Origin: Prosthecochloris vibrioformis
Lineage (GTDB): Bacteria; Pseudomonadota; Alphaproteobacteria; Sphingomonadales; Sphingomonadaceae
DNA length: 64,000 nucleotides
Direction: 5' to 3'
Assembly: GCA_943367575.1 (NCBI GenBank)
Contig: CALRJR020000009.1
Span: 2,369 to 66,368, forward strand
In this document: piece after piece, positions 7,913 to 29,343 of the stretch
Layout of the letters: each line of letters starts with the position of its first letter
How positions within the stretch are numbered: position 1 is the first letter of the stretch
The notes under the pieces: generated by a model
Told to the model about the DNA's origin: nothing
Seen by the model: the letters and a program-made list of their open reading frames with translations, nothing else
Databases searched by the model: none
Translations under genes and position numbers: made by a program

Positions 7913-8607
7913 GCGGCGCTGTCCGAAACGATGTGCCCGTCGCGCATCGTCAGCACGCGGTCACACCGGCTGGCGAGAGCCGGGTCATGGGTGATGATCA
8001 GCAAGGTCGCCCCCGCCGCGCGCTGGCGGTCGAACAACAGGTCGACGATCACGCCGCTGGTCGTGCCATCGAGATTGCCGGTCGGTTCGTCGGCGAAGAT
8101 GATTTCGGGCCGCCCCGCCACCGCGCGCGCGATGGCGACGCGCTGTTGCTCGCCGCCCGACAGCTGCACCGGATAATGGGTCAGACGATGGCCCAGGCCA
8201 ACCGCCTCCAGCTCCGCCGCAGCGCGCGCAAAGGCATCGTCCGCGCCCGCCAGCTCCAGCGGCACCGCGACATTTTCCAGCGCGGTCATCGTGGGCAACA
8301 GGTGGAACGCCTGCAGCACGATGCCGACCCGTCCGCGCCGTGCGCGCGCCAGACCGTCCTCGTCCAGCGTGTCATAGGCGATTCCGGCGACGCTCACGCT
8401 GCCGCCGCTCGCCTGTTCGAGGCCCGACAGGATGGCCATCAGCGACGACTTGCCCGATCCCGACGGACCGAGGATCGCAACGCTGCTCCCGCGCGCGATT
8501 TCGACATCGATTCCCTTCAGAATTTCGGTCGGCGCTTCGCGCGTTCCAAGCGTCAGGGTGACATTGCGCGCGCGGATTGCGATATCCGCCACCGGTTCGA
8601 TCGACAT
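7909..8607 (-). CDS. ybbA: ABC transporter ATP-binding protein (YbbA type)
   Basis: It has Walker A GPSGSGKSS, ABC signature LSGGEQQRVAIARA and Walker B IIFADEPTGNLD. The ATG at 8607 was verified. Confidence 0.92.
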   Translation of the reverse strand: MSIEPVADIAIRARNVTLTLGTREAPTEILKGIDVEIARGSSVAILGPSGSGKSSLMAILSGLEQASGGSVSVAGIAYDTLDEDGLARARRGRVGIVLQAFHLLPTMTALENVAVPLELAGADDAFARAAAELEAVGLGHRLTHYPVQLSGGEQQRVAIARAVAGRPEIIFADEPTGNLDGTTSGVIVDLLFDRQRAAGATLLIITHDPALASRCDRVLTMRDGHIVSDSAA

Positions 8608-8615
8608 AGGTGGAG

Positions 8616-9344
8616 ATGACGTCCTTGATCAGAAAGCTTGCCCCATATGCGGGCGCGGTGCTCCTCCTCCAAGGGCTGAGCGCCTGTTCGGGTGAAAATG
8701 ATGCCGCGAACCAGTCGCTCGCGACCCCGGCGACCCCCGCGGCAGTAGCTAGTGCGGGGGCGGAGAAGGCCGACGCGCGGCTGGTCGTCGCCTTCGGGGA
8801 CAGCCTCTACGCCGGCTATGGCGTGTTGCCGCAGGAGAGTTTCCCTGCGCAGCTGGAAAAGGCTCTGGCAGCGCGCGGGATCCCCGCGAGCGTGCGCAAT
8901 GCCGGAGTCTCGGGCGACACCAGCTCGGCGGGCCTGCGCCGCCTGGCCTTCACGCTCGACGGGCTGGATCGCAAGCCGGACCTCGTCATGGTCAATCTGG
9001 GCGGGAACGACATGCTGCGCGGGATCGATCCGGCGGAGACGCGCGCGAACCTGACCGCGATCTGCGAGGAGCTGAAGAAGCGCGGCATCCCGATCATGCT
9101 GACCGGCATGATCGCCGCGCCGAACATGGGGCGCGACTATGCCGATGCGTTCAACGCGATCTATGGCGATCTGGCCAAGCGCTATGACGCGGTGCTCTAC
9201 CCGTTCTTCCTCGATCAGGTGGTGACCGATCAGACGCTGATGCTGCCCGATCGTATTCATCCCAATCCGCAGGGTCTGACGAAGATCGTCGGACGGGTGA
9301 CGCCGTTGGTGGCAGAGGCGCTGAAGCCGGGCAAGGCGGGCTAG
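8616..9344 (+). CDS. tesA: SGNH arylesterase / acyl-CoA thioesterase I-like lipoprotein
   Basis: ORF 8610..9344 opens with GTG, and the first ATG is at 8616. LLQGLSAC is lipobox-like. The SGNH blocks FGDSLYAGYG, GGNDMLRG and DRIHPN are present. Confidence 0.88.
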   Translation: MTSLIRKLAPYAGAVLLLQGLSACSGENDAANQSLATPATPAAVASAGAEKADARLVVAFGDSLYAGYGVLPQESFPAQLEKALAARGIPASVRNAGVSGDTSSAGLRRLAFTLDGLDRKPDLVMVNLGGNDMLRGIDPAETRANLTAICEELKKRGIPIMLTGMIAAPNMGRDYADAFNAIYGDLAKRYDAVLYPFFLDQVVTDQTLMLPDRIHPNPQGLTKIVGRVTPLVAEALKPGKAG

Positions 9345-9392: not shown

Positions 9393-9404
9393 GCAATCGA
9401 TTGC
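9393..9404. promoter_or_regulatory. LacI-type operator palindrome, copy 1 (GCAATCGATTGC)
   Basis: This is a perfect 12-bp palindrome with a central CG. It is intergenic, about 95 nt upstream of ATG 9500. It is one of five related copies in the window. Confidence 0.6.
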
Positions 9405-9499
9405 ATAAAGCGGTCGCCGGGCGGGGAGAGGAATGCTGAACATGCGTGTGCATGCCGATCTGCCGCCGTCTGTCCTCGGTTCCAACGGGATGTCTTGCC

Positions 9500-10843
9500 A
9501 TGAAGATTGAGCTTCGCGCGGCCTGTGCCGCCACCCTGTTCTGCGTCGCCCTGCCCGCTTCGGCCCAGGCGCTCAAAGTGGGCGCGGCCAAGGTGGACAT
9601 CACCCCCAAGGCGGCGGAAATGCCCAAGAACATGCTCGGCGTGCTCGATCCGCTCAACGTGCGCGCGATCGTGGTCGATGACGGCAAGACACGCGCGGCG
9701 ATGGTGACGGTCGATGCCGGCGCGATCATGACCGAGACTTGGGCCAATGTCGCCGCGCGGGTCGAGCGCGAGCTCAAGATCCCGACCAGCCAGCTGCTGC
9801 TGACCGCCAGCCATACGCACAGCGCGCCATGGATGCGTGGCCCGGCGTACGAGGCGCAGATTTTTGACGCGATCCGCAAGGCGGCGGCGGCGGCCAAGCC
9901 CGCGCGCATGGCCTATGGCACCGGTGTTTCCTACATCAACGTCAACCGCAACATCATCGACCCCGACAACCGCCGCTGGTGGGAAGGTCCGAATTATGAG
10001 GGCGTGTCGGACAAGACCGTCGCGGTGGTGCGCTTCGAGACGCTGGAGGGCGCGCCGATCGCGGTCTATTTCAACTATGGCGTGCATGCCGTGCTGACCG
10101 GCAATCTCGATCTGGTCAGCGCCGACCTGCCGGGTGCCGCGTCCAACTATATCGAGCAATCGCTGGGCGGTGACGCGGTCGCGGTCTATGGAAACGGCGC
10201 GGCGGGCGACCAGAACCCGATCTATTTCAACCAGACCTATGAACTGCGCGCGATCCGCACTGCGGACTATGCCAAGCGCGGTGAGGATATCAGCAACGCC
10301 ATGCCCCCCGGCGGGACCGGCATGGACCGCAGCAATCCGCGCGTCGCGATGCTGATGGAACAGCAGAAGCAGATGGTGAAATCGATGGGCCAGATGCTGG
10401 GCGAGGAGGTGCTGCACGTCAGCCGCGCCAGCCTGGAGCGTCCGGTCGCCGCCGCAACCATTCAGGGCGCGCAGACCAGCGTCACCTGCCCCGGCCGCAA
10501 GCGGCTGGACAAGGGCCGCGCAGGCTATCCCGGCACCTACGAGGACGCGGACCCGATCAGCATCCGACTGAGCCTGCTCAAGATCGGCGACACGGTGATC
10601 GGCGGCGTGGATGCAGAGGTGTTCACGACCATCGCCCAGCGCTTCAAGCGCGAATCGCCGTTCAAGCACACGATGATGACGACCATCACCAACGGCATGG
10701 CGCCGTCGGGCTATATCCCGAACGACGCGGCGTTCGCCTACAACACGTTCGAGGTCGTGTCGTCGCGACTGAAGCCGGGCTGCGCCGAAAGCGCGATCGT
10801 CAACGGGCTGCTCGACCTGATCGACAAGGTCGACGCGAAGTGA
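9500..10843 (+). CDS. exported hydrolase related to the neutral/alkaline (non-lysosomal) ceramidase N-terminal domain
   Basis: ORF 9446..10843. ATG 9500 gives a signal-like MKIELRAACAATLFCVALPASAQA. The blocks LKVGAAKVDITP and LLLTASHTHSAPW are typical of this family as I recall it. Confidence 0.72.
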   Translation: MKIELRAACAATLFCVALPASAQALKVGAAKVDITPKAAEMPKNMLGVLDPLNVRAIVVDDGKTRAAMVTVDAGAIMTETWANVAARVERELKIPTSQLLLTASHTHSAPWMRGPAYEAQIFDAIRKAAAAAKPARMAYGTGVSYINVNRNIIDPDNRRWWEGPNYEGVSDKTVAVVRFETLEGAPIAVYFNYGVHAVLTGNLDLVSADLPGAASNYIEQSLGGDAVAVYGNGAAGDQNPIYFNQTYELRAIRTADYAKRGEDISNAMPPGGTGMDRSNPRVAMLMEQQKQMVKSMGQMLGEEVLHVSRASLERPVAAATIQGAQTSVTCPGRKRLDKGRAGYPGTYEDADPISIRLSLLKIGDTVIGGVDAEVFTTIAQRFKRESPFKHTMMTTITNGMAPSGYIPNDAAFAYNTFEVVSSRLKPGCAESAIVNGLLDLIDKVDAK

Positions 10844-10864
10844 GGCGACGGGCCGCGTCGCCTC
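10842..10864. terminator. shared hairpin between convergent genes (GAGGCGACG / CGTCGCCTC)
   Basis: It has an 8-9 bp perfect GC-rich stem and a 5-nt loop, and it overlaps both stop codons (TGA 10841-10843 and TCA 10863-10865). There is no T tract. Confidence 0.4.
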
Positions 10865-11747
10865 AGCGCGACGCGGCCTGTGCCAGTGCGATGGCGCCGA
10901 GCGGGCCGGCGTCGCTGCCAAGACCTGCGGGCTGGATGATCTCGCACACCGCCACAGGGGTGAGGAAGGGTAGATAGCTCGCGAGTTGCGCGACGACGAT
11001 CTCGCGCACCCAGGGCAGGATGAAGGCGCGTGATAGTGCCACGCTTCCACCGAACAGGATGCGTCGCGCCGACGTCGTCAGCAGGATCGCGCAGCACAAT
11101 TCGGCGATATCGGCCGCGACATGGTGCCAGATAGGGTGGTCATCGGGTGCCGTGGCCGGGTCCATGCCGAAGCGTGCAGCGAGCGCTGGCCCCGACACCA
11201 GCCCCTCGATGCAATCGCCATGAAAGGGGCAGTTGCCGGCAAAGGCGTCACCCGGCACGCGCCGCAGCCGGAGATGGCCGATCTCCGGGTGCATCGCTCC
11301 GTGGACGGGCTGTCCGCCGATCAGCACTCCGCCGCCCAGCCCCGTGCCGATCGTCAGATAGCACAGGCTGTCGCAGCCGATCGCCGCGCCCCAGCGATAT
11401 TCGGCGAGCGCCGCGCCATTGACGTCGGTGTCGATCGCCATTGGGCAGGCCAGCCCCTCGCTCAGCAGCGCCGCGACCGGCGCGCCGGTCCAGCCGGGCT
11501 TGGGCGTCGCTAGGATTTGCCCGAACTTCGGATCACGCGGGTCGAGCTGGACCGGGCCGAAGCTGGCGATGCCGAGGCCCGCGAGCGGCGCGCTGGCCGC
11601 CCATCCGTCGAGGATCGCGCGCAATGCGGTCAGCGTCGCAACCGGCTCACCGGTCGCGATGCTGTGCCGTTCGACGATCGCATCGCCCTGCGCCAGCACC
11701 GCAATCGCCTTGGTCCCGCCCAGTTCGATCCCGGCATAGCGGTTCAT
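10863..11747 (-). CDS. ROK-family fructokinase
   Basis: It starts MNRYAGIELGGTKAI (N-terminal ATP-binding block) and has a Cys/His-rich CPFHGDCIEG region as in the ROK zinc site. ATG 11747 overlaps the GH68 stop (ATGA). Confidence 0.82.
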   Translation of the reverse strand: MNRYAGIELGGTKAIAVLAQGDAIVERHSIATGEPVATLTALRAILDGWAASAPLAGLGIASFGPVQLDPRDPKFGQILATPKPGWTGAPVAALLSEGLACPMAIDTDVNGAALAEYRWGAAIGCDSLCYLTIGTGLGGGVLIGGQPVHGAMHPEIGHLRLRRVPGDAFAGNCPFHGDCIEGLVSGPALAARFGMDPATAPDDHPIWHHVAADIAELCCAILLTTSARRILFGGSVALSRAFILPWVREIVVAQLASYLPFLTPVAVCEIIQPAGLGSDAGPLGAIALAQAASR

Positions 11748-12910
11748 CCATTCATCTCCAGCCCAGCCGCATCCCCCTGCAACCGCAAGCGCAACATCGG
11801 CGCGAAGGTGGCGCCGAAGCGGCGGGCATTCGCGTCGTTGCCATCACTCCCCCACGCGTCGATGAAACTCGTCACCTGAAGATCGGGCAGGACCAGCCAG
11901 CTATAGGCCTGTTTCGGCGCGGCGTCAGGGTTGGCGAACACCAGGCCGGTGCCGTTAAGCGGACGCCAGCCGCCATCGATCCGGTCGGAGACCATGCCGT
12001 ACAGCCCGGTCGGGCCGGTCGGACCGTCGGGATTGAAGACATGCCGTTGGGTCGACCAGAACAGATAATAGAGCCCGCCGTGCATCACGACGTGCGGCCG
12101 CTCCAGCTCATTGTTGAGCATATCCGCGCTGACCAGCGGCGGGCGGATGTCCCATTCCGCCAGCGTGTCATCGCGCGCGCTTGCCCAGCCGACGCAGCCG
12201 TTGAAGGCGGAGGCAGAGCCCGCGAGCGAGGCAGCGAAGAAGACATGATGCCGCCCGTCGTGCGGGTCGCGGAAATAGGCCGGGTCGCGGAAGGCCTTGA
12301 TCGTGCCGACCGCACCGCTGCCAGCATCGCTTGCCATGTAATGCGCGGGATCGCGGATCACGAATTCGCGCAGGTCACGCCAGTCGGTGAGGCGATAGCC
12401 GCCCTCGTCAGCCAGGGTCGCATCCGCGCGGAACAGGCGCTGCTCGAAGGTCAGCGCTGCCTCGCCGCGCCGTCCCGTGGCGGTAAAGAACAAGGTCAGC
12501 GTGCGGCGGTCGTCTGCAAGCAGCGCAGAGCCGGACCATTCGCGGCTGCCCGGCGCAAAGCCGTCGGGCATGGCCGGGCCGAGCGGGTGCCAGCCCGCAG
12601 CGTCGCGCAGGATCAGGTGGATGCGGGCATGGCCATGCCGCGTATCGGGGTCGGGAAAGCGCGGCGCGCCCAGCGCCATCCACAAAGTCTGCCCGTCGCG
12701 CAACGCGGAGGGCGTGCCATCCGCATCCTGCACCGGCCACGCGTCCCAGATGTCGAGATCCGGCGCGATGCGGAGCACATCATCGTCCAGGATCAGCGGC
12801 GCGCTGTCATGGCGAGATCCGGCGAGTGCACGGATCTGCGCGGGGGTCCAGGACGCCGTCGCCGCCTGCTCCGCCGCGACGATCGCCGGCGACTGTTCGA
12901 TCGCGCTCAT
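11744..12910 (-). CDS. glycoside hydrolase family 68 (levansucrase / sucrose hydrolase-like), no signal peptide
   Basis: ORF 11744..12973 opens with TTG, and I use ATG 12910 (MSAIEQ). The blocks IWDAWPVQDADG, REWSGSALL, FRDPAYFRDP, ELERPHVVMHGGLYYLF, TGPTGLYGMVS and QAYSWLVLPDLQVTSFID align block for block with Pseudomonas syringae Lsc as I recall it. Confidence 0.85.
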   Translation of the reverse strand: MSAIEQSPAIVAAEQAATASWTPAQIRALAGSRHDSAPLILDDDVLRIAPDLDIWDAWPVQDADGTPSALRDGQTLWMALGAPRFPDPDTRHGHARIHLILRDAAGWHPLGPAMPDGFAPGSREWSGSALLADDRRTLTLFFTATGRRGEAALTFEQRLFRADATLADEGGYRLTDWRDLREFVIRDPAHYMASDAGSGAVGTIKAFRDPAYFRDPHDGRHHVFFAASLAGSASAFNGCVGWASARDDTLAEWDIRPPLVSADMLNNELERPHVVMHGGLYYLFWSTQRHVFNPDGPTGPTGLYGMVSDRIDGGWRPLNGTGLVFANPDAAPKQAYSWLVLPDLQVTSFIDAWGSDGNDANARRFGATFAPMLRLRLQGDAAGLEMNG

Positions 12911-13052
12911 CGGGCGACCACTCCGACAGGCGCCAGCAGATCCGCGGCACATCCGGTCAGCCCATTTCGGCAATACGCATCAACTCGCCGGATCAATTCG
13001 CTCTTCCTTCCTCGGGCCTAGGCGACTTCCTTGCCGACTTCGCAAGGGTTTC

Positions 13053-13064
13053 GCAATCGATTGT
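13053..13064. promoter_or_regulatory. LacI-type operator palindrome, copy 2 (GCAATCGATTGT, 11/12)
   Basis: It lies in the divergent intergenic region between the GH68 gene (start 12910, minus) and the esterase gene (start 13137/13164, plus). Confidence 0.5.
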
Positions 13065-13163
13065 GAATACAGCTTGAAATCTGTCGCGCGACGCGCTTCT
13101 ATCAAAGTAGCCGGGAGCGCCGACGCGCCGCCCGGGATGGGAAGATGCACGGTGACGATTGAG

Positions 13164-14126
13164 ATGATGGGACGGCGCGGATTTCTGGTCGGGGCGACAG
13201 GCCTCGCGGTGCTTGGCGCAGCAGCGAGCAGTGCAGCGCAATTCCCCAAGCTCCCGCCGATGCCGCGCGCATGGATCGATGCCGAACAAATCCCGCTCTG
13301 GCCCAACGGCACCCCCGGCGGCGGCTACACCGCCCGCGCGGTCCCCGCCGACTGGCCCGACATCATGGTCCGCAACATCGAGAAGCCGATGCTGCGCGTG
13401 TTCCGTCCGGAGAAGTCGAACGGCCGCGCGTTGCTGTCGATCCCGGGCGGCGCCTACACCTTCGTGTCGATCCTCAACGAAGGCGTCGATGTCGCCCGCG
13501 CGATGACCGCGCGCGGCTACACGGTGTTCGTGCTCACCTATCGCCTGCCTGACGAAGGCTGGGCGAACCGCGAAGATGTGCCGCTGCAGGATGCGCAGCG
13601 CGCAATCCGCGTGATCCGCGCCAATGCCGGACGCTACGGGTTCGACCCGGCCAAGGTCGCGGCGGTCGGATTTTCCGCAGGCGGCCATCTCGGCGCGACG
13701 CTGGCGACCGGCTTTGCCGAGCCGGTCTATGCGCCCCGTGACGCGACCGACGCGCTCGATGCCCGGCCCGCGGCAATGGCGCTGATCTATCCCGTGATCA
13801 GCGTCACCGCGCCGGTGACGCATGGTGAGTCCGCAATGCGGCTGCTGGGCAATGCGCCCTCCGCCACCTTGATCGCGAAGCGCTCCCCGGCGCAGCATGT
13901 CAGCGCGCAAACGCCGCCCATTTTCCTCGTCCACGCGCTCGACGACAAAGCGGTTCCGGCCGAGAACAGCATGATCATGCTGCGCGCGCTGCAGGCCGCG
14001 AGCCGCCCGGTCGAGCTGCATCTGTTCGAAGCGGGCAATCACGGCTTTGGCGTCGGGCGGCCCGATACGCCGGCGGGGCAGTGGCCCGCTCTGTTCGCCG
14101 CCTGGCTCGACCGGCATCTGAGCTAG
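13164..14126 (+). CDS. exported (Tat-like signal) alpha/beta-hydrolase esterase, BD-FAE type
   Basis: It is the 3' part of ORF 12477..14126, with in-frame ATGs at 13137, 13164 and 13167. MMGRRGFLVGATGLAVLGAAASSAAQ is twin-arginine-like. It has the blocks IPGGAYTF, GFSAGGH, and DDKAVP...GNHGF. It is a paralogue of 4459..5376. Confidence 0.8.
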   Translation: MMGRRGFLVGATGLAVLGAAASSAAQFPKLPPMPRAWIDAEQIPLWPNGTPGGGYTARAVPADWPDIMVRNIEKPMLRVFRPEKSNGRALLSIPGGAYTFVSILNEGVDVARAMTARGYTVFVLTYRLPDEGWANREDVPLQDAQRAIRVIRANAGRYGFDPAKVAAVGFSAGGHLGATLATGFAEPVYAPRDATDALDARPAAMALIYPVISVTAPVTHGESAMRLLGNAPSATLIAKRSPAQHVSAQTPPIFLVHALDDKAVPAENSMIMLRALQAASRPVELHLFEAGNHGFGVGRPDTPAGQWPALFAAWLDRHLS

Positions 14127-15352
14127 GCGCGGTAATCGTCGGCGTCGCGCTGCGCGAGCAGCGCGGCGAACGGCGCGCGCGACTTGTTCCAGCCGCACAG
14201 CAGCGCCAGCAGCGTCGCGAATACGCCGCCGAGCAGGATCGCATAGCTGCTGTCCGCCAGCCATTCGCCCAGCGCGCCCATCGCCAGCGGCGCCAGCACG
14301 GCGCTAAGACAGGTGAAGAACAGGAGCAGTCCGGCGATCGACCCGTGCCGCCCCTTGTCGTAGCAGCTGATCCCAGTCGAATTGATCGTCGGATACAGCA
14401 CCGACATGAACAGCCCGGTGGCGGGCAGCGCGAAGATCGCGACCTCCCGCCCGCCCAGCACTGCGATCCAGAACAGCGCCGCCATCGCCGCGCTGCACAC
14501 GAAAATCACGCTCGCCCAGTCGAACCGCGAGAGCAGCCACACGCCCAGGAACCGCCCCACCGCGCGCAGCACGAATAAGATCGACACGACATAGGCCGCC
14601 AGCCACAGCCACGACCCCGAATACTCGGCCAGATAGGTCGGCGCCCAGACATAGATCGCCGCCTCTGCCCCGACATACAGCATCAGCGCGGTGCCAAAAA
14701 AGCGCGCGGGCGGATCGCCCGCCATGCGGATCGCCTCGCTCGCACGGACCGGTTCGGTGCGGGTGACGATCGGGCGCGGGAAGCGCGCCACCGCCGACCC
14801 CAGCACCAACAGCGCGCACAGCATCGCCGCGATGATATACACCCATTTCCAGCTCGCGCCCTGCGTCAGCATATAGGTGACGATCGCCGGCCCGATGATC
14901 GCGCCGACCCCGAAAAACCCCTCGATCAGGTTCATCGTCCGCGCATGCTCCCCGGTCGAGCGCGACAGGTCACCGATCAGCGCCAATGCGCCGGACTTGA
15001 AGATTCCGATGCCGATGCCGGAGACAAACAACAGGCTGGTGAAGAACAGGAAATCATGCCCGGCCGCGAACAGCGCCGAGCTGACGCCGAACAGGATCAG
15101 GCCGATCAGGATCGTCGCCTTGCGCCCGATCCGGTCGGCCAGGAAGCCGAGGGCGATCGCGGAGATGCCGATCCCGGCCATCGTCGCGTACTGGAACGAT
15201 CCACCGGCGGTCAGGCCCAGCTGAAACTCGCGGATCACTTCGGGAATGACCGTGCCGACCGAGTCCGTGGTCATCGCGAACATCGCGAACATCAGGAACA
15301 CCAGTGCCTTGAGCAGCGTCGCCGCGCCGTCCCGTCCCGCCTGATCGTTCAT
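14123..15352 (-). CDS. MFS sugar transporter (FucP/GluP-like subfamily)
   Basis: ORF 14123..15364 opens with TTG, while ATG 15352 has GGAGAG 4 nt upstream. It is multi-TM and carries the D-R-x-G-R-K loop motif LADRIGRK. Its stop shares the palindrome CTAG with the convergent esterase stop. Confidence 0.85.
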   Translation of the reverse strand: MNDQAGRDGAATLLKALVFLMFAMFAMTTDSVGTVIPEVIREFQLGLTAGGSFQYATMAGIGISAIALGFLADRIGRKATILIGLILFGVSSALFAAGHDFLFFTSLLFVSGIGIGIFKSGALALIGDLSRSTGEHARTMNLIEGFFGVGAIIGPAIVTYMLTQGASWKWVYIIAAMLCALLVLGSAVARFPRPIVTRTEPVRASEAIRMAGDPPARFFGTALMLYVGAEAAIYVWAPTYLAEYSGSWLWLAAYVVSILFVLRAVGRFLGVWLLSRFDWASVIFVCSAAMAALFWIAVLGGREVAIFALPATGLFMSVLYPTINSTGISCYDKGRHGSIAGLLLFFTCLSAVLAPLAMGALGEWLADSSYAILLGGVFATLLALLCGWNKSRAPFAALLAQRDADDYRA

Positions 15353-15393
15353 CCCGCTCTCCAATCAATCATCGTTCGCGCCGAGAGAACGGA

Positions 15394-15424
15394 AAGGGCG
15401 GGAGGCGCATAGCCCCCCGCCCTT
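15394..15424 (-). terminator. hairpin between the TBDR and the downstream MFS gene (AAGGGCGGG ... CCCGCCCTT)
   Basis: It has a perfect 9-bp stem and a 13-nt loop. On the sense (minus) strand it is followed by TTCCGTTCTCTC, a weak U tract. Confidence 0.4.
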
Positions 15425-15443
15425 CCCGCATGTCCGATTCCGG

Positions 15444-17540
15444 TCAGGGCGTGACCCGGAAACGAAGGCCGATCGTGCGCGGGGTCGGACCCGATCCCGA
15501 CAACGGGCCATTGGTGCCGACAAAGGTCGGCCCACGCTCGTCCGTCAGGTTGTTGCCGATCAGGGCCAGCTCGTAATCGCCGTATCGCACGCCCAGGGTC
15601 AGGGCCATCACGTTGTAGGACGGCGCGGTGATACCGTTGCCCTGCAAGCGATCACCGCTGTGGCTAAGCGACAGGTTGCCGAACAGGTTCACGCCGCTCG
15701 CGATCTCGCCATTATAACCCGCATCGACGCGGAAGTTGTTCGACAGCGTGTTGGTTAGGCGCGCGCCGGGCCGCAACAGCGGCTGCGCCGCCGCGACGAT
15801 CGGATTGACGCGGGTATATTTGCTGTCGTTGAAGTTGCCGACAAAGCCCAGGTTGAACCCCTTGAGCGGGGTATTCCAACGCAGTTCGAGATCGACGCCC
15901 TTGGTCTTCGCGTCACCGAAATTGGCAAAGCCATTGACGTTGGCAATCGACCCGGTGACCGATGTCTGCAGGTTGGTATATTCGAGCTGATAGAGGTTGA
16001 GGCCGATATTCACCGACCGGTCGGCGCTACGCCATTTGACGCCAAACTCGTAGTTGGTCGACGATTCCGGCTCGAGCGTCACGCCCGTCGGCACGCCCGC
16101 GCCAGTCACCGACTGAACCTGCACCCGCGACTGCACGATGCCGGGACGGAAGCCGGTCGCCGCCGAGATGAACATCGTCAGATCGTCGGTCGGCAGATAG
16201 GACAGGTTGACGCGCCAGGTGGTCACGTCCTTCGTGGTCGGGAGCGTCTCGGTCGCGTCGGCAAAGGCGCGATCGTCATGATATTGGCGCAATCCCACCA
16301 GCGGGACCAGCTTGCCGTCGAACAGTTCGTAGCTGACCTCGCCGAAGAACGCGTAATTCTCCGTCAGCGTGTCATTGTCGGCGTTGATGAGGACCCCCGG
16401 AAGGGTCAGCGTATTCTCCTGCGGGCCCGACCCGTTCTGGTAGGACGCACCGACCAGCCATTTGAACGGCCCGCTGCCGTTTGAATTCAAACGCAATTCC
16501 TGAGCGAACATGCTCGGCAGGAACTGGCTCGAGAAGGAGCCGGCGGGCGAAAGCGGGATGTTGATCCCGAATACGCCGTCGAGCTGGCTGGTCGCGCTGG
16601 TGATCGAGAAGGCGTCGAAATCCACCGTTGCGGTCAGGCTATACAGCGTGAAGTCGCCGTTCGAGAAGCCGTCCTGCCCGGCGGTGTTCTGGAAATAGGG
16701 CGGATTGACCGATGCGGTGAAGCCGGTGAAGCCCTGACGCGGGCGGAACTTCCAATATTGCGCGCGGATGTTGACGTTGTCGGCCGGGCGGAACAGCGCG
16801 ACGACGCGGATATCGTCATTCTTGGCTACGTTGACGCCGGTCTCGTCGGGGGTGCCGTCGAACGCACCATAATAGGCATCGGCCCAGCCCGCATCGCGGG
16901 AGAAGCCGCCGCTGACGCGCACCGCCAGCATGTCCTTGACGATCGGCACGGAGATCGCGCCGGCCACGCCATAGTTGAGGCCGTCCGCGCCGCGGGTCTG
17001 CGATGCCTCCGCCTCGAACGCATAGTCGAAATCCTTGAGGTTCGGATCGCGCGTGCGGAAGATGAATACGCCGCCCGACGAGCCCTGCCCATAGAGCGTG
17101 CCCTGCGGCCCGCGCAGCACTTCGACGCGGTCGATGTCGAGGAAGCGCACCGGCGGCGCGATGCCGAAATTGGTGACGATGAACGGCGCATCGTCGAGAT
17201 AATAGCCGATCGGCGAGTCGCCATTCTGCGTCACGCTGCCGCGCAGATTGTAGAAGCGTGAACCGTTGGACTGGCGGAACCCCTCAAACGCGCCCGGCAC
17301 GCTCGATACCAGGTCGCCGATCGTGCTGATATTGCGTTCCTTCAGCTCCTCGCCGTCGAACGCCTGGATGGCGAGAGGCACTTCCTGCAGCGCCTGCGCG
17401 CCGCCCTTTTGCGCGGTCACGACGACCTCATCGGTCGCGGATTCCTGCGCGGTGGTGGCTTCGCTCTGCGCAAATGCCGGGGCCGCCCCCAGACCACTAA
17501 CGACCGCAATGGCCGCGACTGACGTACAGAAACGCTTCAT
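15444..17540 (-). CDS. TonB-dependent receptor
   Basis: It is 698 aa. MKRFCTSVAAIAVVSGLGAAPAFA is signal-like and DEVVVTAQK is TonB-box-like. It has plug blocks (IEVLRGPQGTLYGQGSSGG) and a long beta-barrel-type sequence. Confidence 0.92.
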   Translation of the reverse strand: MKRFCTSVAAIAVVSGLGAAPAFAQSEATTAQESATDEVVVTAQKGGAQALQEVPLAIQAFDGEELKERNISTIGDLVSSVPGAFEGFRQSNGSRFYNLRGSVTQNGDSPIGYYLDDAPFIVTNFGIAPPVRFLDIDRVEVLRGPQGTLYGQGSSGGVFIFRTRDPNLKDFDYAFEAEASQTRGADGLNYGVAGAISVPIVKDMLAVRVSGGFSRDAGWADAYYGAFDGTPDETGVNVAKNDDIRVVALFRPADNVNIRAQYWKFRPRQGFTGFTASVNPPYFQNTAGQDGFSNGDFTLYSLTATVDFDAFSITSATSQLDGVFGINIPLSPAGSFSSQFLPSMFAQELRLNSNGSGPFKWLVGASYQNGSGPQENTLTLPGVLINADNDTLTENYAFFGEVSYELFDGKLVPLVGLRQYHDDRAFADATETLPTTKDVTTWRVNLSYLPTDDLTMFISAATGFRPGIVQSRVQVQSVTGAGVPTGVTLEPESSTNYEFGVKWRSADRSVNIGLNLYQLEYTNLQTSVTGSIANVNGFANFGDAKTKGVDLELRWNTPLKGFNLGFVGNFNDSKYTRVNPIVAAAQPLLRPGARLTNTLSNNFRVDAGYNGEIASGVNLFGNLSLSHSGDRLQGNGITAPSYNVMALTLGVRYGDYELALIGNNLTDERGPTFVGTNGPLSGSGPTPRTIGLRFRVTP

Positions 17541-17561
17541 TGTCCTCTCCCCGGATTTTTT

Positions 17562-17573
17562 TCAATCGATTGC
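17562..17573. promoter_or_regulatory. LacI-type operator palindrome, copy 3 (TCAATCGATTGC, 11/12)
   Basis: It is 22 nt upstream of the TBDR ATG (17540) and immediately downstream of the predicted -10 element. Confidence 0.55.
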
Positions 17574-17580
17574 ATAAATT

Positions 17581-17609
17581 GGCATAAATGGGCCGAAATC
17601 CATCGTCAA
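17581..17609 (-). promoter_or_regulatory. sigma70-like promoter for the TBDR (-35 TTGACG, 17-nt spacer, -10 TATGCC)
   Basis: The reverse complement reads ttcTTGACGatggatttcggcccattTATGCCaatttatgCAATCGATTGa. A second TATGCA lies 10 nt further downstream. Confidence 0.45.
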
Positions 17610-17643
17610 GAATCGCCCCGACCCCAGGCGATACCGACGCCCC

Positions 17644-18729
17644 TTATTGCGATGGACGCGCAAAGGCGCGGCGCAGCGCCTCGATCCTCGCGCGCGTGAA
17701 CTGCTTGGCTTGCGGCGAGTCCGCCGACAACTGATCGAACCCATGATAGGCGCCGGGAATGACCTGCAACTCGGTCGGCACCCCTGCTTCGTTCAACCGC
17801 CGGGCATAGTCGATATCCTCGCTGACGAAGAGATCGACCCCGCCAACCTGAATGAAGGCAGGCGGCAACCCGGCCAGGTTCGGCGTCCGGGCCGGCACGG
17901 CGCGCGCGGGCACCTTATCGGTGCCGGGTGCCTGCCCCAGAAACGCCTTCCAGCCATATTGGTTTTCGGACGCGCTCCACCCGACCGTGGCGATATGGCC
18001 GGGCAGCTTCACCGCGCCGCCGGTGCGATCGTCGAGCATCGGATAGACCAGGGCCTGAAACGCGATCGGGATTTCGCCGCGGTCGCGCGCGGTGATCGCC
18101 AGCAGTGCGGCATGCCCGCCGCCCGCGCTCTCGCCCGTCACCGCGATGCGGCTGCGGTCGAGACCCAGCTCCGCCGCGCTCTGATACATCCAGCGCAGCC
18201 CGGCATAATTGTCCTCGATCGATCCCTCGAACGTCGTCTCCGGCGCCAGGCGGTATTCGACGCTGACGATCACCGCATCGAGCTCGCGCGCCATCTCCTG
18301 CAGGCGGCGCACATCGGTTGCCGCGGTGCCGAGGATATAGCCACCGCCATGGGTGTGGAGGATGCCGGGACGACTGGTTCCCGCCTTGGCGTTGATGACG
18401 AACAGCTTGACCTGCGGCGCGCCGGCCGGGCCGGGGATCATCTTCTCCACCACCGGGATATCGGCGTGGCGCGGAGGCACCGGCGGCCCGCCGCCGCGCT
18501 TGCGCGACGCGAGCACCATCGCTTCGTCGATGGTCCCCATCATCTTCGAAAAGCCGATCGCCATGCGTGCGCCCGCACGCAGTTCCGGCGCGATCGGGGT
18601 CAGCTTCGCCTCGTCCTCGGCGGTCAGTTGTGGTGGCGGAGGCGGACCCTGCTGCGCCAAGGCAGCAACGGGAACGGTCGCGACGCTGAGCAAAGCGGCT
18701 CCACAGACGATGGAAATCCTCGCGCGCAT
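17644..18729 (-). CDS. exported alpha/beta-hydrolase carboxylesterase, family IV (HSL-like)
   Basis: ORF 17644..18732 opens with GTG, while ATG 18729 has GGGAGAG 4 nt upstream. MRARISIVCGAALLSVATVPVAALA is signal-like. It has the HGGG-type oxyanion block HTHGGGYILG and the nucleophile elbow GESAGG. Confidence 0.88.
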   Translation of the reverse strand: MRARISIVCGAALLSVATVPVAALAQQGPPPPPQLTAEDEAKLTPIAPELRAGARMAIGFSKMMGTIDEAMVLASRKRGGGPPVPPRHADIPVVEKMIPGPAGAPQVKLFVINAKAGTSRPGILHTHGGGYILGTAATDVRRLQEMARELDAVIVSVEYRLAPETTFEGSIEDNYAGLRWMYQSAAELGLDRSRIAVTGESAGGGHAALLAITARDRGEIPIAFQALVYPMLDDRTGGAVKLPGHIATVGWSASENQYGWKAFLGQAPGTDKVPARAVPARTPNLAGLPPAFIQVGGVDLFVSEDIDYARRLNEAGVPTELQVIPGAYHGFDQLSADSPQAKQFTRARIEALRRAFARPSQ

Positions 18730-18778
18730 CACACTCTCCCAACCACTTATCGTTCGGACTCGGGTCCGTTATGGCGAC

Positions 18779-18806
18779 ATCCTATTAGCAATCGATTGCA
18801 AGTCAA
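18779..18806 (-). promoter_or_regulatory. sigma70-like promoter for the esterase, with the operator in the spacer (-35 TTGACT, 16-nt spacer, -10 TAGGAT)
   Basis: The reverse complement reads gtggagTTGACTtGCAATCGATTGCtaaTAGGATgtcgcc. Confidence 0.45.
18788..18799. promoter_or_regulatory. LacI-type operator palindrome, copy 4 (GCAATCGATTGC)
   Basis: This is a perfect 12-mer that lies exactly between the predicted -35 and -10 of the esterase promoter, 44 nt downstream of the LacI gene stop. Confidence 0.6.
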
Positions 18807-18842
18807 CTCCACCAAAGTCGTAGATCGCGTGACGCTTGGGGC

Positions 18843-19865
18843 TCAGCTGGACTCGCGGACGATCAGTTCGGGGGTGAGGATCGTCGATCCGGTCGCCTCG
18901 CCCGCGATCCGCTTCATCAGACTATCGACCAGATGCGCGGCGCCGGCGGCAAGGTTCTGACGCACCGTCGACAGTGGCGGCGCACTGGTGCGCGCGAGGT
19001 AGAGGTCGTCATAGCCGATCACCCTGACGTCCCCCGGCACCGACAGGCCGCGCGTCGCCAGCACCTGAATCGCGGTCAGCGCGATCAGGTCGGACGCGGC
19101 GAAGATGCCGTCGGGCAGGATGTCGGACTGGTCGAGAAACGCGTCGATATCCGATCCGCTGACTTCCGAATCGAAATGGGTCGTCGCATCGACCAGCCGG
19201 ATCCCGTCCTGCGCGGCGATCGCCGCCTTGGCCCCTTCAAGGCGCAAGGACGGCTCGATCGCCTGGGTGTTGCCGAGGAACGCGATCTTGCGGCATCCGC
19301 GGTCGATCAGATGTTGGGTCGCGAGCCGCCCGCCAAGGAAATTGTCGGTGCCGACCGAACAATGGATCTGTCCCTGCACGAACCCGCCCCAGGCGACGAG
19401 CGGCAGATAGTCGGCGGCGGTGCGATCGAGCACCTGCGACTGATCTGACTGGCCGACGATGATGAAGCCATCGACGCGGTCGGCATCAATCAGCCGCGCC
19501 AGCCAATTGTCCTGATTGGGAATGACGCGCGACAGCATCAGGTCGAACCCGCGCTCGCTCAGTTCGTCGGCGAGATAACCGATCAACGTCATAAAGAACG
19601 GGTCGGACAGATGCTGCCCGCGATCATGGCCGAGCGGCACCACCACGCCGATCGCCCCGCGCTGCTTGGTGCGCAAATTTCGCGCGAGCGCGCTGGGACG
19701 AAAATCGTGCGTCTCGGCCAGTTTGCGGATGCGTTCGGAGGTCTTGGAATTGACCATCGTCTTGCCCGCCAGCGCGCGCGACACGGTCGCGGCCGACACA
19801 CCGGCCAGTTCGGCAAGGTCGTAGATGGTCTTGATCTTGCGCGCCAAATTCCGCCTCCGCCTCAC
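18843..19865 (-). CDS. LacI/GalR-family transcriptional regulator
   Basis: It has the HTH block IYDLAELAGVSAATVSRAL followed by a periplasmic-binding-protein-like sugar-binding core. The ORF opens with GTG 19865. A TTG at 19847 preceded by GGAGGCGG would give MARKIKTIYDLA, a more typical N-terminus. Confidence 0.9.
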   Translation of the reverse strand: MRRRRNLARKIKTIYDLAELAGVSAATVSRALAGKTMVNSKTSERIRKLAETHDFRPSALARNLRTKQRGAIGVVVPLGHDRGQHLSDPFFMTLIGYLADELSERGFDLMLSRVIPNQDNWLARLIDADRVDGFIIVGQSDQSQVLDRTAADYLPLVAWGGFVQGQIHCSVGTDNFLGGRLATQHLIDRGCRKIAFLGNTQAIEPSLRLEGAKAAIAAQDGIRLVDATTHFDSEVSGSDIDAFLDQSDILPDGIFAASDLIALTAIQVLATRGLSVPGDVRVIGYDDLYLARTSAPPLSTVRQNLAAGAAHLVDSLMKRIAGEATGSTILTPELIVRESS

Positions 19866-19925
19866 GCAGCCAAGGGGATAGGGTCGCGCCGCGTCCTTTG
19901 CAACAAGCCCGTCCCCGGTTGCAGG

Positions 19926-21227
19926 CTAGTTGCGCCGGAACCGGGCGAGGTCGATCGCGCGCGCCATTGCGGCATTGCCCGCGTCATTGGGGTGGACGTT
20001 GTCGCCGGGATCATAGGCCGGGTTGAGCCGCGTCGGACGCGCCGGATCGCGCAGCACCGCGTCGAAATCGACCAGCGCATCGAACTTGCCGCTTGTCCGG
20101 ATCCACTGGTTCACGGCTTGACGCAGCGCCTCGGTCTTCGCGCTATACAGCCATGTCCCCTCGGTCGGGGCGATGGTGGCGCCCATCACCTTGATCCCGT
20201 GCAGATGCGCGCGATCGATGAATTGAGAATAGGCCGCGATCAGGTCCTCGGCGGTGACCGCCTCGCTCGCCGGAATCCCGGGGATCGCCGCGAAATTGAT
20301 GTCGTTGATCCCTTCCAGCAGGATCACCCAGCGCACGCCGGGCCGCGCCAGCACATCGCGATCGAACCGGGCGAGCGCCGACAGCCCCGCCCCGTCGCGC
20401 CGCACGCGGTTGCCCGAAATTCCCATGTTGATGACCGACAGGTGCTGCGTGCGCGCATCTCCCTGCAACCGCTCGGCCAGCAGATCCGGCCACGCCCGCC
20501 CCGTGTCCGGGCTCGTGCCATAGCCGTCAGTGATCGAATCGCCGAAGGCGACGATCGTGCCAGCCTTCGTATCCGCCTGAACCGCCAGCCCGCTCAGCCA
20601 GAAATAGGACCGGTTGGTCTCGGCGTCGGGCAGCGCGGCATCGCCGGTGCGCTGTCCCTTTGCGACATAGGTGGTGCGTAGCCCCAGCGGGTGCAGCGTG
20701 TTCACCGCGACGTCTTCAGGAAGATGAATCGACACCGCGAGCAGCTCCAGTGCAGCGACATCGAGCGTCACCGGATCGCTGAACACCACCGCGCCCGGCT
20801 GGATCGTGACACCCGCCTGACCGGCAAAGCTGAGCGCCCGCGACGTATCCGCGCGGATCGCCCCAGCTTCGGCGCTCTTGGCAATCGCCGCGCGGCCGAT
20901 GCGGAGCGGCTCCCCGCCGCTCGCATTGGAGAATTGCACCCGCCACACGCTGCCTTTGACGGTCGGGCGGACGACCATGCGCACGGTCTGATCCTTCAGC
21001 CGTTCCGGCGTCGGCAGGATCGGCGAGGGCGTTGCGGGCGGCAGCGGCGCGGGCCGCGTCTCCCCCGCCGGGCGCGGCGGCAGGCGCGGCGGCGGCATCG
21101 GCGCGAGCTGTTGCGCGGTGCCCCATGCGCTGATCCAGCGATCCTCCGCTTGCGCCACCGGCGACAGGATCAATGCGACCGCGCCGCACAGCACGATCCA
21201 TCCGCGCATGATTGCCCCGTTTTTCAC
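19926..21227 (-). CDS. exported SGNH/GDSL hydrolase with an N-terminal beta-rich domain
   Basis: The GTG start at 21227 has GGGAGGGG 4 nt upstream (alternative ATG at 21209). The signal-like N-terminus ends at AQA. It has the SGNH blocks FGDSITDGYG, GISGNR, GINDI and DNVHPN, plus a Pro-rich linker near the N-terminus. Confidence 0.85.
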   Translation of the reverse strand: MKNGAIMRGWIVLCGAVALILSPVAQAEDRWISAWGTAQQLAPMPPPRLPPRPAGETRPAPLPPATPSPILPTPERLKDQTVRMVVRPTVKGSVWRVQFSNASGGEPLRIGRAAIAKSAEAGAIRADTSRALSFAGQAGVTIQPGAVVFSDPVTLDVAALELLAVSIHLPEDVAVNTLHPLGLRTTYVAKGQRTGDAALPDAETNRSYFWLSGLAVQADTKAGTIVAFGDSITDGYGTSPDTGRAWPDLLAERLQGDARTQHLSVINMGISGNRVRRDGAGLSALARFDRDVLARPGVRWVILLEGINDINFAAIPGIPASEAVTAEDLIAAYSQFIDRAHLHGIKVMGATIAPTEGTWLYSAKTEALRQAVNQWIRTSGKFDALVDFDAVLRDPARPTRLNPAYDPGDNVHPNDAGNAAMARAIDLARFRRN

Positions 21228-21265
21228 CGAACCCCTCCCGCGTCATGCCAGGCGACCGAACGCCT

Positions 21266-21277
21266 GCAATCGATTGC
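21266..21277. promoter_or_regulatory. LacI-type operator palindrome, copy 5 (GCAATCGATTGC)
   Basis: This is a perfect 12-mer in the divergent region between the SGNH hydrolase (start 21227, minus) and the protease (start 21355, plus). Confidence 0.55.
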
Positions 21278-21354: not shown

Positions 21355-22584
21355 ATGCGCCTGATCCCGACCTTCCTGCTCCTGCTCGCATGGTGCGCGC
21401 TACCGCCGTCCGCGGCAGCGCAACCCGCGCAGACCCGCGCCGAAGCACTGGCACAGGACGCGGCCGAATATGCCCGAGCCTATGGCGTGCCGGAGCCAGA
21501 GGCGAAGCGCCGCCTGATCGCGCAGCAGGACAGCGTGCCCGCAATCGACGCCATCGCCGATCGCTATCGCGACCGCCTCGCCGGCATCTCGGTCCAGCAT
21601 CGTCCCGACTATCGCTTCGTCGTCTATCTCACCGGCGATCGCCCGGTCCCGCCCACTGAGGTGCTGACCGGGTCGACGCGCGTCCCCGTCCAGTTCCGCA
21701 CCGGCGCCAAGGCCAGTCGCGAGCGGGTGCTGTGGGCGCTTACCAACCACCAGCCGGCGATCCGCGCGGCGCTCGCCGACACGCCATCGATGGGCATCGA
21801 TCCGCGCACCGGCGAGCTGGTCGTGATCGCCGCCAAGTCCGTGGTCGACCGCGCCGGGGGCAAGGCCACGCTCGACGCCCGGCTGACGCAGCTGACCGGC
21901 GTGCCGGTGCAGGTGCGCATGATCGATCAGGTCGATCGCAATCTGGGTCCTCAGGGCGGCGGGCGGCTCGACGGCACCGATCCGGCGAGCGGACGGCGCT
22001 ATCGCTGCACCAGCGGCTTTCTGGTCGGCGACGGCACGCGCACCGGCGTGACCACCGCCGCACATTGTCTGGATGACCTGGCCTATATCGATCCGGCGCG
22101 CCAGGCGACGCCGCTCGGCTTTGTCGGGCAATGGGGCTGGGGCTATCACGATGTCCAGATCCACACCGTCCCAACCGCCGCGCGCCCGCGGTTCTTCGCC
22201 GACACGGCGCGGACGCTAGCCCGCCCGGTCGAGGCGCAGCGCGCCAAGACCAGCACCCGCGCCGGGGATTTCGTGTGTCATCGCGGCGAAAGCACCGGCT
22301 ATAGCTGCGCCGAAGTGGCGTTGCTCGACTTCGCACCGTCCGGCCAGCTGTGCGGCGGTTACTGCCTGCCGACCTGGGTCGCTGTGTCCGGCCCGACCTG
22401 TAAACAGGGCGACAGTGGCGGCCCGGTGTTCAGCGGCACCACCGCATTCGGCATCGTCAAGGGCGCCGCATTCCGGCCCGACGGCTCCTGCGCGCTCTAT
22501 TTCTATATGTCGCTCGATTACCTGCCGACGCCCTGGCGCCTGCTGACCGAAGCCGCGCCAGCGCCGCCGGTCGCACAGGAATAG
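21355..22584 (+). CDS. secreted S1-family serine protease with a long pro-region (alpha-lytic protease / streptogrisin-like)
   Basis: The N-terminus MRLIPTFLLLLAWCALPPSAAA is signal-like and is followed by a pro-region of about 190 aa. The catalytic blocks are TAAHC (His), HDVQI (Asp candidate) and GDSGGPV (Ser). Confidence 0.85.
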   Translation: MRLIPTFLLLLAWCALPPSAAAQPAQTRAEALAQDAAEYARAYGVPEPEAKRRLIAQQDSVPAIDAIADRYRDRLAGISVQHRPDYRFVVYLTGDRPVPPTEVLTGSTRVPVQFRTGAKASRERVLWALTNHQPAIRAALADTPSMGIDPRTGELVVIAAKSVVDRAGGKATLDARLTQLTGVPVQVRMIDQVDRNLGPQGGGRLDGTDPASGRRYRCTSGFLVGDGTRTGVTTAAHCLDDLAYIDPARQATPLGFVGQWGWGYHDVQIHTVPTAARPRFFADTARTLARPVEAQRAKTSTRAGDFVCHRGESTGYSCAEVALLDFAPSGQLCGGYCLPTWVAVSGPTCKQGDSGGPVFSGTTAFGIVKGAAFRPDGSCALYFYMSLDYLPTPWRLLTEAAPAPPVAQE

Positions 22585-22720
22585 CGCGGCAGGATTTGGC
22601 GCTGGTTACCCGAAAATCTGTGCTGAGACGCACCGACACGCCGTGCGATTGACCATCGCGCCCGGTTGGCCAATCCCGTCCACGCCCGGCGACCAGCGTC
22701 GAGCGAAGCGGAGTTTCGGG

Positions 22721-23349: not shown

Positions 23350-23529
23350 CTACGCGTCGCAACCGGCTGATTACGCGCGCCGTTGCGGCCAATTATGTCG
23401 GTTTCGGGTCAATTAGTTATTCGCTCGCGCACAAGACCCTACGCCCGCGCCATGGCTCAATCCCCTCACTGTCGGGAGCATCCTGAACCAACGGGAGCCC
23501 CATCTCGGGAGGATCAACACGATTGGGGG

Positions 23530-25986: not shown

Positions 25987-26010
25987 TCCTCGATACGCAT
26001 GGGGATTTCT

Positions 26011-26046
26011 GCCGGGCGGCGTGGCGACACGTCGCCCGGCTTTTTT
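26011..26046 (+). terminator. intrinsic terminator after the TBDR gene
   Basis: GCCGGGCG...CGCCCGGC forms an 8-bp stem that can be extended through GCGT/ACGT, and it is followed by TTTTTT. Confidence 0.7.
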
Positions 26047-26204
26047 GGTGCAAACAGCGTAAACCGGCCCGGATTGGACGCGCCGGGGCGGGATCAATTG
26101 TTCGGGCGCGGGCGATCAAGTCTTGATCCGCCATTTGCTTAGTCTCCTCCTCAATCGACCCCCGGCTCATTCCGACCGCGCGGATCGAGCGAAGGAGTGC
26201 GCCG

Positions 26205-28711: not shown

Positions 28712-28801
28712 TCCGCCCGCCTGAGCGGACCGACATCTTCTGCGGGTGACGCATGGTGCGTCGCCATCGCCATCCCCTGCCCGTTTCGAGGAGCACTTCG
28801 C

Positions 28802-29287: not shown

Positions 29288-29343
29288 CGCATCGCACCAC
29301 CGCGCAAAAACAAGGACTTGTGCGCGGCGATACAAGACCTTCC

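Follow-up and report, generated by a model that had tools for sequence, protein, structure and literature searches.

A predicted LacI regulon joining a GH68 enzyme, TonB-dependent uptake and four exported acyl hydrolases: a candidate acyl-sucrose utilization locus in Alphaproteobacteria

Introduction

The prototype of the TonB-dependent receptor (TBDR) carbohydrate-utilization (CUT) locus is sux of Xanthomonas campestris, which comprises the TBDR SuxA, the amylosucrase SuxB, the transporter SuxC of the melibiose/GPH family and the LacI repressor SuxR (PMC1790865). The nine-gene cluster considered here occupies positions 9393-21277 of a 64-kb stretch (GC ~66%) of contig CALRJR020000009.1 from assembly GCA_943367575.1, hereafter the window, and likewise has, within one repressor-controlled locus, a TBDR, a LacI repressor, a secondary transporter of the inner membrane and an enzyme that presumably cleaves sucrose in the cytoplasm, an arrangement that would match the sux logic of high-affinity scavenging across both membranes. 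It differs from sux in that a GH68 enzyme replaces the GH13 amylosucrase SuxB, in that its transporter is a TsgA/FucP-like MFS_1 protein and not a GPH-family protein as SuxC is, in the presence of a ROK-family kinase, and in four operator-linked exported acyl hydrolases, of which sux has none. A previous sequence-only reading of the window had described the cluster as a mirror of sux with GH68 in place of amylosucrase; this holds for the architecture, to which the likeness appears to be limited, and fails for the transporter family, while its statement that the four hydrolases have no sux counterpart was borne out, the de-acylation module being absent from sux. In architecture the cluster is a CUT locus.

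Plants accumulate acylated sucroses in abundance, both on their surfaces and as storage metabolites, and these compounds, trichome acylsugars and acetylated phenylpropanoid sucrose esters among them, act against insects and microbes; synthetic sucrose esters find wide use as emulsifiers and bittering agents. Literature searches returned no bacterial locus for acyl-sucrose uptake or catabolism and no association of GH68 with ceramidase-like and esterase genes, in agreement with the earlier remark that no described bacterial system of this kind was known. From the evidence presented below it is proposed, with moderate confidence, that the cluster scavenges an esterified beta-fructofuranoside, most simply an O-acetylated or short-acyl sucrose, as one LacI-repressed regulon.

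Results and discussion

One operator heads five transcription units

The nine genes lie under five operators (Table 1), which head five units: the ceramidase-like hydrolase (Cer); GH68 with the ROK kinase, divergent from the twin-arginine esterase (TatEst); the TBDR with the major facilitator superfamily (MFS) transporter; the family IV esterase (EstIV); and the SGNH esterase with LacI. Exactly five copies of the 10-bp operator core, CAATCGATTG, are present in the window (9394, 13054, 17563, 18789 and 21267), compared with a mean of 0.05 copies in dinucleotide-preserving shuffles of the same sequence, none of 100 of which reached five. All five copies are intergenic, each with a start codon 28-150 bp downstream, and the extended consensus, GCAATCGATTGC, has the central CG that is typical of LacI-family operators. 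Because five exact copies were found against 0.05 expected, all at these distances from start codons, the five units are assigned to one LacI-repressed regulon, as the sequence-only reading had supposed from the palindrome; the pairing of the operator with the LacI protein of the cluster is predicted. LacI orthologues (37-98% identity) are present in all related clusters, where they are accompanied by the same operator, which is conserved at equivalent promoters across 30 related loci; the Cer orthologues of loci L001-L013 (numbering of the related loci) retain an upstream site equivalent to operator 1. A chance juxtaposition of unrelated hydrolase genes with a sucrose locus might be suspected, given that alpha/beta-hydrolases are common in sphingomonad genomes and that an unrelated TesA-like SGNH gene lies just outside the cluster, but the excess of exact operators over expectation and conservation across genera and orders through gene shuffling make this very improbable, and for practical purposes it is excluded.

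Table 1. Genes and operator sites of the cluster, in window coordinates
Feature	Position	Strand	Remarks
Operator 1, GCAATCGATTGC	9393..9404		102 bp upstream of the Cer gene
Ceramidase_alk-like hydrolase (Cer)	9500-10843	+	Pfam PF04734, 55.6 bits (cutoff 32); Sec signal peptide MKIELRAACAATLFCVALPASAQA
ROK-family sugar kinase	10863-11747	-	Pfam ROK 166 bits
GH68	11744-12910	-	Pfam 216 bits (cutoff 27); without signal peptide
Operator 2, GCAATCGATTGT	13053..13064		divergent GH68 / TatEst promoter region
BD-FAE/PaeX-like Tat esterase (TatEst)	13164-14126	+	Pfam BD-FAE 79 bits
MFS_1 transporter, TsgA/FucP-like	14123-15364	-	Pfam MFS_1 124 bits
TonB-dependent receptor (TBDR)	15444-17540	-	Plug and barrel domains
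Operator 3, TCAATCGATTGC	17562..17573		28 bp upstream of the TBDR start
Family IV (HSL) esterase, Abhydrolase_3 (EstIV)	17644-18732	-	Pfam 185 bits; signal peptide
Operator 4, GCAATCGATTGC	18788..18799		62 bp upstream of EstIV
LacI regulator	18843-19865	-	LacI HTH and Peripla_BP_3 domains
Two-domain CBM-like+SGNH esterase	19926-21227	-	Lipase_GDSL_2 108 bits; signal peptide
Operator 5, GCAATCGATTGC	21266..21277		44 bp upstream of the SGNH-LacI unit

Pfam and NCBIfam confirmed all nine gene identities that had been listed earlier, with a correction to the strand of the Tat esterase, which lies on the plus strand: the minus-strand 423-residue open reading frame at 12993-14264 has no Pfam match and was rejected, the real gene being contained in the plus-strand frame 12477-14126. 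Alternative starts are an ATG at 13137 for TatEst and a TTG at 12973 for GH68. N-terminal export signals can be read in the translations of Cer, TatEst, EstIV, SGNH and the TBDR, and none is present in GH68 or the ROK kinase.

The hydrolases stay with the GH68 core through rearrangement

A GH68 scan of the genome collection returned 26 relatives, from Sphingomonas (best identity 93%), Sphingopyxis, Altericroceibacterium and a Caulobacterales metagenome-assembled genome (MAG), whose loci were compared by searching them with every window protein (tblastn) and by clustering of genes called de novo; L015, of lower GC, was mapped by tblastn, the gene caller based on GC at third codon positions (GC3) failing there. 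The context analysis was then repeated with Cer as anchor, and subsequently from distant GH68 homologues. Across 30 related loci from Sphingomonas, Sphingopyxis, Altericroceibacterium, Caulobacter, Hyphomonas and MAGs, a core of GH68, kinase, TBDR and LacI stands beside esterases despite shuffling, and this conserved partnership is, like the operator sites, directly observed. The entire cluster is collinear with the window in L001-L007 (85-93% GH68 identity). In L008-L017 and L025 (61-76% GH68 identity) Cer, TatEst, EstIV and SGNH remain beside GH68 in differing orders and orientations, for example c26-Cer / TBDR / SGNH-MFS-LacI / GH68-ROK / EstIV-TatEst in L013 and ROK / tannase / GH68 / Cer-EstIV / TatEst / MFS-LacI in L017, and the operator precedes nearly every unit. 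Linkage of the hydrolases to the GH68/TBDR core, the lack of which had been named beforehand as grounds for rejecting the proposal, holds down to 61-66% GH68 identity. In Sphingomonas sp. ZT3P38 (L010, 12045-12530 and neighbourhood) no more than ~36% of the Cer gene could be detected and an orthologue of the TBDR is lacking, which suggests that the cluster has decayed or been remodelled there.

The same system was recovered from the Cer-anchored search (L028/L029, and L030 in Hyphomonas). A MAG labelled 'Devosia' carries ROK-GH68-LacI-MFS / Cer / tannase-TBDR / EstIV-BD-FAE with four operators, and Hyphomonas beringensis (L030) has orthologues of the TBDR (66%), Cer (73%) and ROK (61%) together with two Abhydrolase_3 esterases, LacI, MFS and two SGNH hydrolases. 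The position of GH68 in H. beringensis is taken by a signal-less 374-residue protein (L030:16193-17317, minus strand) that has no Pfam, NCBIfam or PDB sequence match; its sole tie to GH68 is a colinear series of WDSW, WSGS, RDP and E motifs, and it may represent an unrecognised family of clan GH-J. From the distant GH68 homologues, Caulobacter segnis (L031) was found to carry GH68-Cer-LacI-TBDR (72%)-EstIV-BD-FAE-transporter and two more esterases, and a Caulobacter-like locus on a 641-kb metagenomic contig (L032, JGI 3300050207) Abhydrolase_3-SGNH-MFS / EstIV / acetate-CoA ligase / GH68-ROK-Cer-LacI-TBDR. The acetate-CoA ligase of L032 (TIGR02188 equivalog, 975 bits, cutoff 725) lies between operator-bearing regions, and a DUF485+SSF pair resembling the acetate permease ActP, the DUF485 start of which is 54 bp from an operator, likewise lies within or next to that cluster (L032:1-9871).

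Esterases that are not orthologous to those of the window also appear to have been recruited independently to this core. According to Pfam, a tannase/feruloyl esterase has been added in L008, L010, L013, L016, L017 and L028 (319-355 bits), a second Abhydrolase_3 family in L012-L014, a type-B carboxylesterase (COesterase) in L008 and a PF00756 esterase in L031, and extra SGNH enzymes, a small hydrolase among them, occur in L014 and L030; in L016 the TBDR and tannase genes are translationally coupled. The Sphingopyxis version, found in one arrangement in seven genomes, has LacI and a GPH (MelB-like) transporter divergent from a TBDR-GH68-ROK-family VIII esterase-family IV esterase-acyl-CoA ligase series, which is considered one operon because ROK and c12, and c12 and c13, overlap by 4 bp. 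Both Sphingopyxis esterases lack signal peptides, and the ligase belongs to a long-chain-fatty-acid-CoA ligase subfamily (488 bits, cutoff 476); in this version de-acylation appears to follow import, with activation of the released acid. L026, finally, is a plain LacI-transporter-GH68 locus, free of esterases, under the same operator type.

Four exported hydrolases and their relatives

The fold of Cer is that of the neutral ceramidases of Pseudomonas aeruginosa (2ZWS/2ZXC) and human (4WGK), with which it has in common the catalytic domain and the His/His/Glu/Tyr zinc site. These enzymes were the only meaningful structural matches of its AlphaFold2 model (pLDDT 93.6) in Foldseek (2zxc/4wgk, E 1e-24 to 3e-25, 17% identity), with TM-scores of 0.67-0.70 normalised by the query and 0.46-0.50 by the target. 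The zinc-site motifs HTHS, mHp, GE and gYi align to those of 4wgk in the family profile, and residues H105, H107, H196 and Y405 are nearly invariant among homologues. At 447 residues, Cer covers positions 3-254 of the 509 in the Pfam profile, equivalent to the N-terminal domain only, and it differs from the neutral ceramidases in its low identity (~17%), in lacking their C-terminal immunoglobulin-like domain and in belonging to a sugar regulon instead of a lipid context. It is among the best conserved parts of the cluster (61-73% identity in Caulobacter, Hyphomonas and the 'Devosia' MAG, always inside this cluster; 68-73% for the homologues in other families and orders from which the Cer-anchored comparison started) and belongs to an uncharacterised branch of the ceramidase superfamily with 8,387 representatives at 50% clustering. 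Turnover of glycosphingolipids, which the ceramidase fold and the sphingolipid-containing genus might suggest, was rejected because Cer is just as well conserved in the sugar clusters of Caulobacter and Hyphomonas, and in every case has GH68 or the GH-J-like enzyme as its partner. An ester, in place of an amide, is conceivable as the substrate of Cer.

The nearest characterised relatives of the other hydrolases include carbohydrate acetyl and feruloyl esterases, namely PaeX, AxeA1 and the FjoAcXE-like enzymes. TatEst has a twin-arginine motif, RRGFLVG (start MMGRRGFLVG), and a GFSAGG nucleophile elbow, matches 6a6o and 7dwc in the PDB, and scores below the NCBIfam cutoffs of both PaeX (274 bits, equivalog cutoff 550) and AxeA1 (143 bits). 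PaeX and the BD-FAE esterases are, as TatEst is predicted to be, periplasmic alpha/beta-hydrolases that de-acetylate or de-feruloylate imported oligosaccharides, whereas TatEst has a sub-equivalog score, no pectin genes nearby and an export signal for Tat; it is best described as a related BD-FAE-type esterase and not as PaeX. EstIV, with its HGGG oxyanion motif (HTHGGGY) and GESAG motif (GESAGG), resembles generic HSL esterases on its matches to NCBIfam LipP1 (185 bits), 7wol (240 bits) and the heroin esterase 1lzk (180 bits). The SGNH protein has the build of the FjoAcXE-like acetyl xylan esterases, an N-terminal beta-sandwich resembling a carbohydrate-binding module (CBM-like) packed on the SGNH domain: it matches 7tog over residues 69-431, both domains (266 bits), and 7tok, the CBM-like domain alone, over residues 76-214, followed by 9KR0/9KQZ as second-best PDB match. 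The structures 7TOG-7TOJ are those of the FjoAcXE-like PbeAcXE and CspAcXE, which remove hindered acetyls from substituted xylose and whose subgroup has the signature GNSI around the catalytic serine (PMC9105624). In the window protein this signature is replaced by GDSI (FGDSITDG), so it is judged from its motifs a relative rather than a member of the subgroup; GISG and DNVHP likewise stand in place of GIGG and DxLHP, and its setting is a fructoside locus without xylan genes.

These resemblances could be taken to indicate a locus for xylan or pectin de-acetylation, which was rejected because none of the cluster variants contains a gene for a xylanase, a xylosidase or a pectinase. In a different account the locus serves plain sucrose or free fructo-oligosaccharides, and the esterases are co-regulated by sucrose as a plant signal and act on cuticle or acetylated cell-wall polymers instead of on the imported sugar. 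In its favour, xylan or pectin fragments are the substrates of the nearest characterised relatives of two of the esterases, L026 is a plain GH68 locus with the same operator, and the analogous sux locus is known to be induced by sucrose (PMC1790865). However, co-regulation by a signal requires no linkage, yet the esterase genes have remained next to the core through many rearrangements, with translational coupling to it in L016 and Sphingopyxis; the signal-less esterases of Sphingopyxis can meet only imported molecules; no xylanase, pectinase or cutinase gene accompanies them in the variants; and the cluster is present in marine Hyphomonas. The plain-sucrose account is on balance unlikely, though not far-fetched.

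GH68, the kinase and sugar transport

The GH68 protein is predicted to be a beta-fructofuranosidase or fructosyltransferase active on sucrose, with an intact catalytic triad: D56 (WDAW), R208-D209-P210 and E268/E270 (NNELERP) are invariant in 10 orthologues, among which the first ~20 residues are variable and non-hydrophobic. Its closest structures are levansucrases and inulosucrases at ~200 bits (best match 7bj4, 201 bits). It has the fold, the triad and the lack of a classical signal peptide in common with the Gram-negative levansucrases of Erwinia (4D47) and Brenneria (7EHS) and with the archaeal 7BJ4, but is ~30-40 residues shorter and, unlike levansucrases, shares with a kinase an operon controlled by a catabolic repressor, a setting that suggests hydrolysis inside the cell as opposed to levan synthesis outside it. 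The ROK kinase, the gene of which overlaps the GH68 stop codon by 4 bp and follows GH68 in nearly all related loci, is probably a fructokinase, ScrK being its best match among the NCBIfam ROK models (171 bits, equivalog cutoff 400).

The MFS gene is predicted to be co-transcribed with, and downstream of, the TBDR gene, orthologues of which are 66-74% identical in the Hyphomonas and Caulobacter clusters. Its top NCBIfam matches, TsgA and FucP, are sub-threshold, and apart from MFS_1 the protein matches no other model. In L031 and L026 the MFS transporter is replaced by an inner-membrane transporter the sole NCBIfam match of which is a GPH sucrose/H+ symporter; GPH-type transporters are thus encoded by these two loci, the former from C. 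segnis, and by the Sphingopyxis version.

Proposed pathway and substrate

In the proposed pathway an acylated sucrose-type fructoside of ~0.5-1 kDa would be taken across the outer membrane by the TBDR, since an acylated sugar would be too large and amphiphilic for porins. The four exported hydrolases (TatEst, EstIV, CBM-like+SGNH and Cer), which probably differ in position or acyl specificity, would then strip the acyl groups in the periplasm, after which the MFS transporter would import the freed disaccharide, GH68 would split it in the cytoplasm and the ROK kinase would phosphorylate the released fructose; the freed sugar, or a product of it, would relieve LacI repression. Directly observed are the gene identities, the export signals and the intact catalytic motifs, to which the model adds a proposed substrate, a sequence of steps, compartments and an inducer.

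A sucrose-type core is favoured because GH68 is intact, no other glycosidase was found in any cluster variant compared, and the transporters of C. segnis and L026 resemble sucrose symporters. Acetyl or short-acyl groups are favoured by the relatives of the esterases and by the acetate-CoA ligase and ActP-like genes of L032, while the tannase-family enzymes found in several lineages hint at additional aromatic (hydroxycinnamoyl-type) esters; such a mixture of acetyl and aromatic groups would be in keeping with both trichome acylsucroses and acetylated phenylpropanoid sucrose esters. A variation on this substrate is an acylated fructan oligosaccharide, such as a fragment of acetylated levan or inulin, with GH68 acting as an exo-fructosidase. 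Levan is among the substrates that GH68 enzymes can hydrolyse, oligosaccharides are common cargo of TBDRs, and relatives of the acetyl esterases act on oligo- and polysaccharides; against this, no GH32 or endo-levanase gene was found in any cluster variant compared, some variants have a sucrose-symporter-like transporter, and we know of no naturally acylated fructan. Among the candidate substrates of the sequence-only reading, acetylated levan is a poorer fit than acetyl or short-acyl sucrose esters because of the missing GH32 and endo-levanase genes and because the fructosidase looks cytoplasmic, and a fructan substrate is considered decidedly improbable.

Several observations weigh against the proposal of acyl-sucrose scavenging. 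A cytoplasmic location of GH68, read from its missing signal peptide, is uncertain: Gram-negative levansucrases can be exported without one, as in Zymomonas, Erwinia and Pseudomonas, and to our knowledge all characterised GH68 enzymes act outside the cytoplasm. The TsgA/FucP-like family of the window transporter is better known for monosaccharides, the ROK kinase and TatEst both score below the equivalog cutoffs of their nearest models, and the SGNH protein lacks the GNSI signature. The cluster is present in marine Hyphomonas, where plant acyl-sugars are an unlikely resource, and the natural substrate class may consequently be broader or different. All loci are alphaproteobacterial, which limits the number of truly independent events.

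The first two of these points are also what recommends a pathway for the same substrate class in which GH68 is exported without a signal peptide, sucrose is split in the periplasm and the FucP-like transporter imports a monosaccharide for the ROK kinase, as the closest Gram-negative PDB relatives of GH68 are secreted levansucrases without classical signals. This arrangement is at odds with the translational coupling of GH68 to a cytoplasmic kinase, with the Sphingopyxis operon in which GH68 accompanies signal-less esterases and a CoA ligase, and with the replacement of the MFS transporter by sucrose-symporter-like transporters in L031 and L026, and is considered improbable.

More broadly, and only tentatively, the loci of Sphingomonas, Caulobacter, Hyphomonas and Sphingopyxis could represent a dedicated, modular alphaproteobacterial pathway for natural acyl-sucroses, with plant trichome acylsugars or acetylated phenylpropanoid sucrose esters as candidate substrates, with periplasmic and cytoplasmic versions of de-acylation and with Cer as an unrecognised family of sugar de-acylases. 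On that tentative reading these loci would be the first in bacteria to be recognised for the breakdown of acyl-sucroses, which plants use in defence and storage. Acyl-sucrose scavenging, if correct, would moreover give a role to a large branch of the ceramidase superfamily that is so far uncharacterised, provide a GH68 enzyme that works as an intracellular catabolic sucrase, and offer position-specific sugar de-acylases of biotechnological interest. The cluster gives candidate roles to several uncharacterised enzyme clades, and the question is directly testable as the regulon is defined, with a known operator, in tractable genera such as Caulobacter and Sphingomonas.

Genes flanking the cluster

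The flanking ABC/FtsX/TesA-like genes and a secreted 409-residue protein are syntenic with the cluster in its closest relatives only. At 5393-9344 an FtsX permease, an ABC ATPase and a divergent TesA-like SGNH hydrolase (8610-9344, directly outside the cluster and unrelated to it) are laid out as in E. coli ybbP-ybbA/tesA, and operator 1 sits between this block and the Cer gene. On the other side, the gene for the 409-residue protein (21355-22584, plus strand), to which a sub-threshold trypsin-motif match is the sole clue, is divergent from the SGNH gene, so that the two have the operator-bearing intergenic region in common. It could be co-repressed, but is probably not part of the system because it is retained in L001 and L006 only.

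Further downstream, a gene for an NADPH-dependent FMN reductase (22643-23299, plus strand), with a weak GC3 signal, separates the cluster from an aromatic-compound catabolic cluster at 23383-35562. Neither the latter nor the 409-residue protein is conserved with the locus in relatives, and both were rejected as members of the cluster. The aromatic cluster has a second TBDR, an MFS transporter, the alpha subunit of a Rieske ring-hydroxylating oxygenase, a glyoxalase-like protein, a LigB-type extradiol dioxygenase, an FmdA/AmdA amidase, an SBF-like transporter and a TauD-family dioxygenase, and on its minus strand encodes a 790-residue AraC-type regulator fused to an FmdA/AmdA domain.

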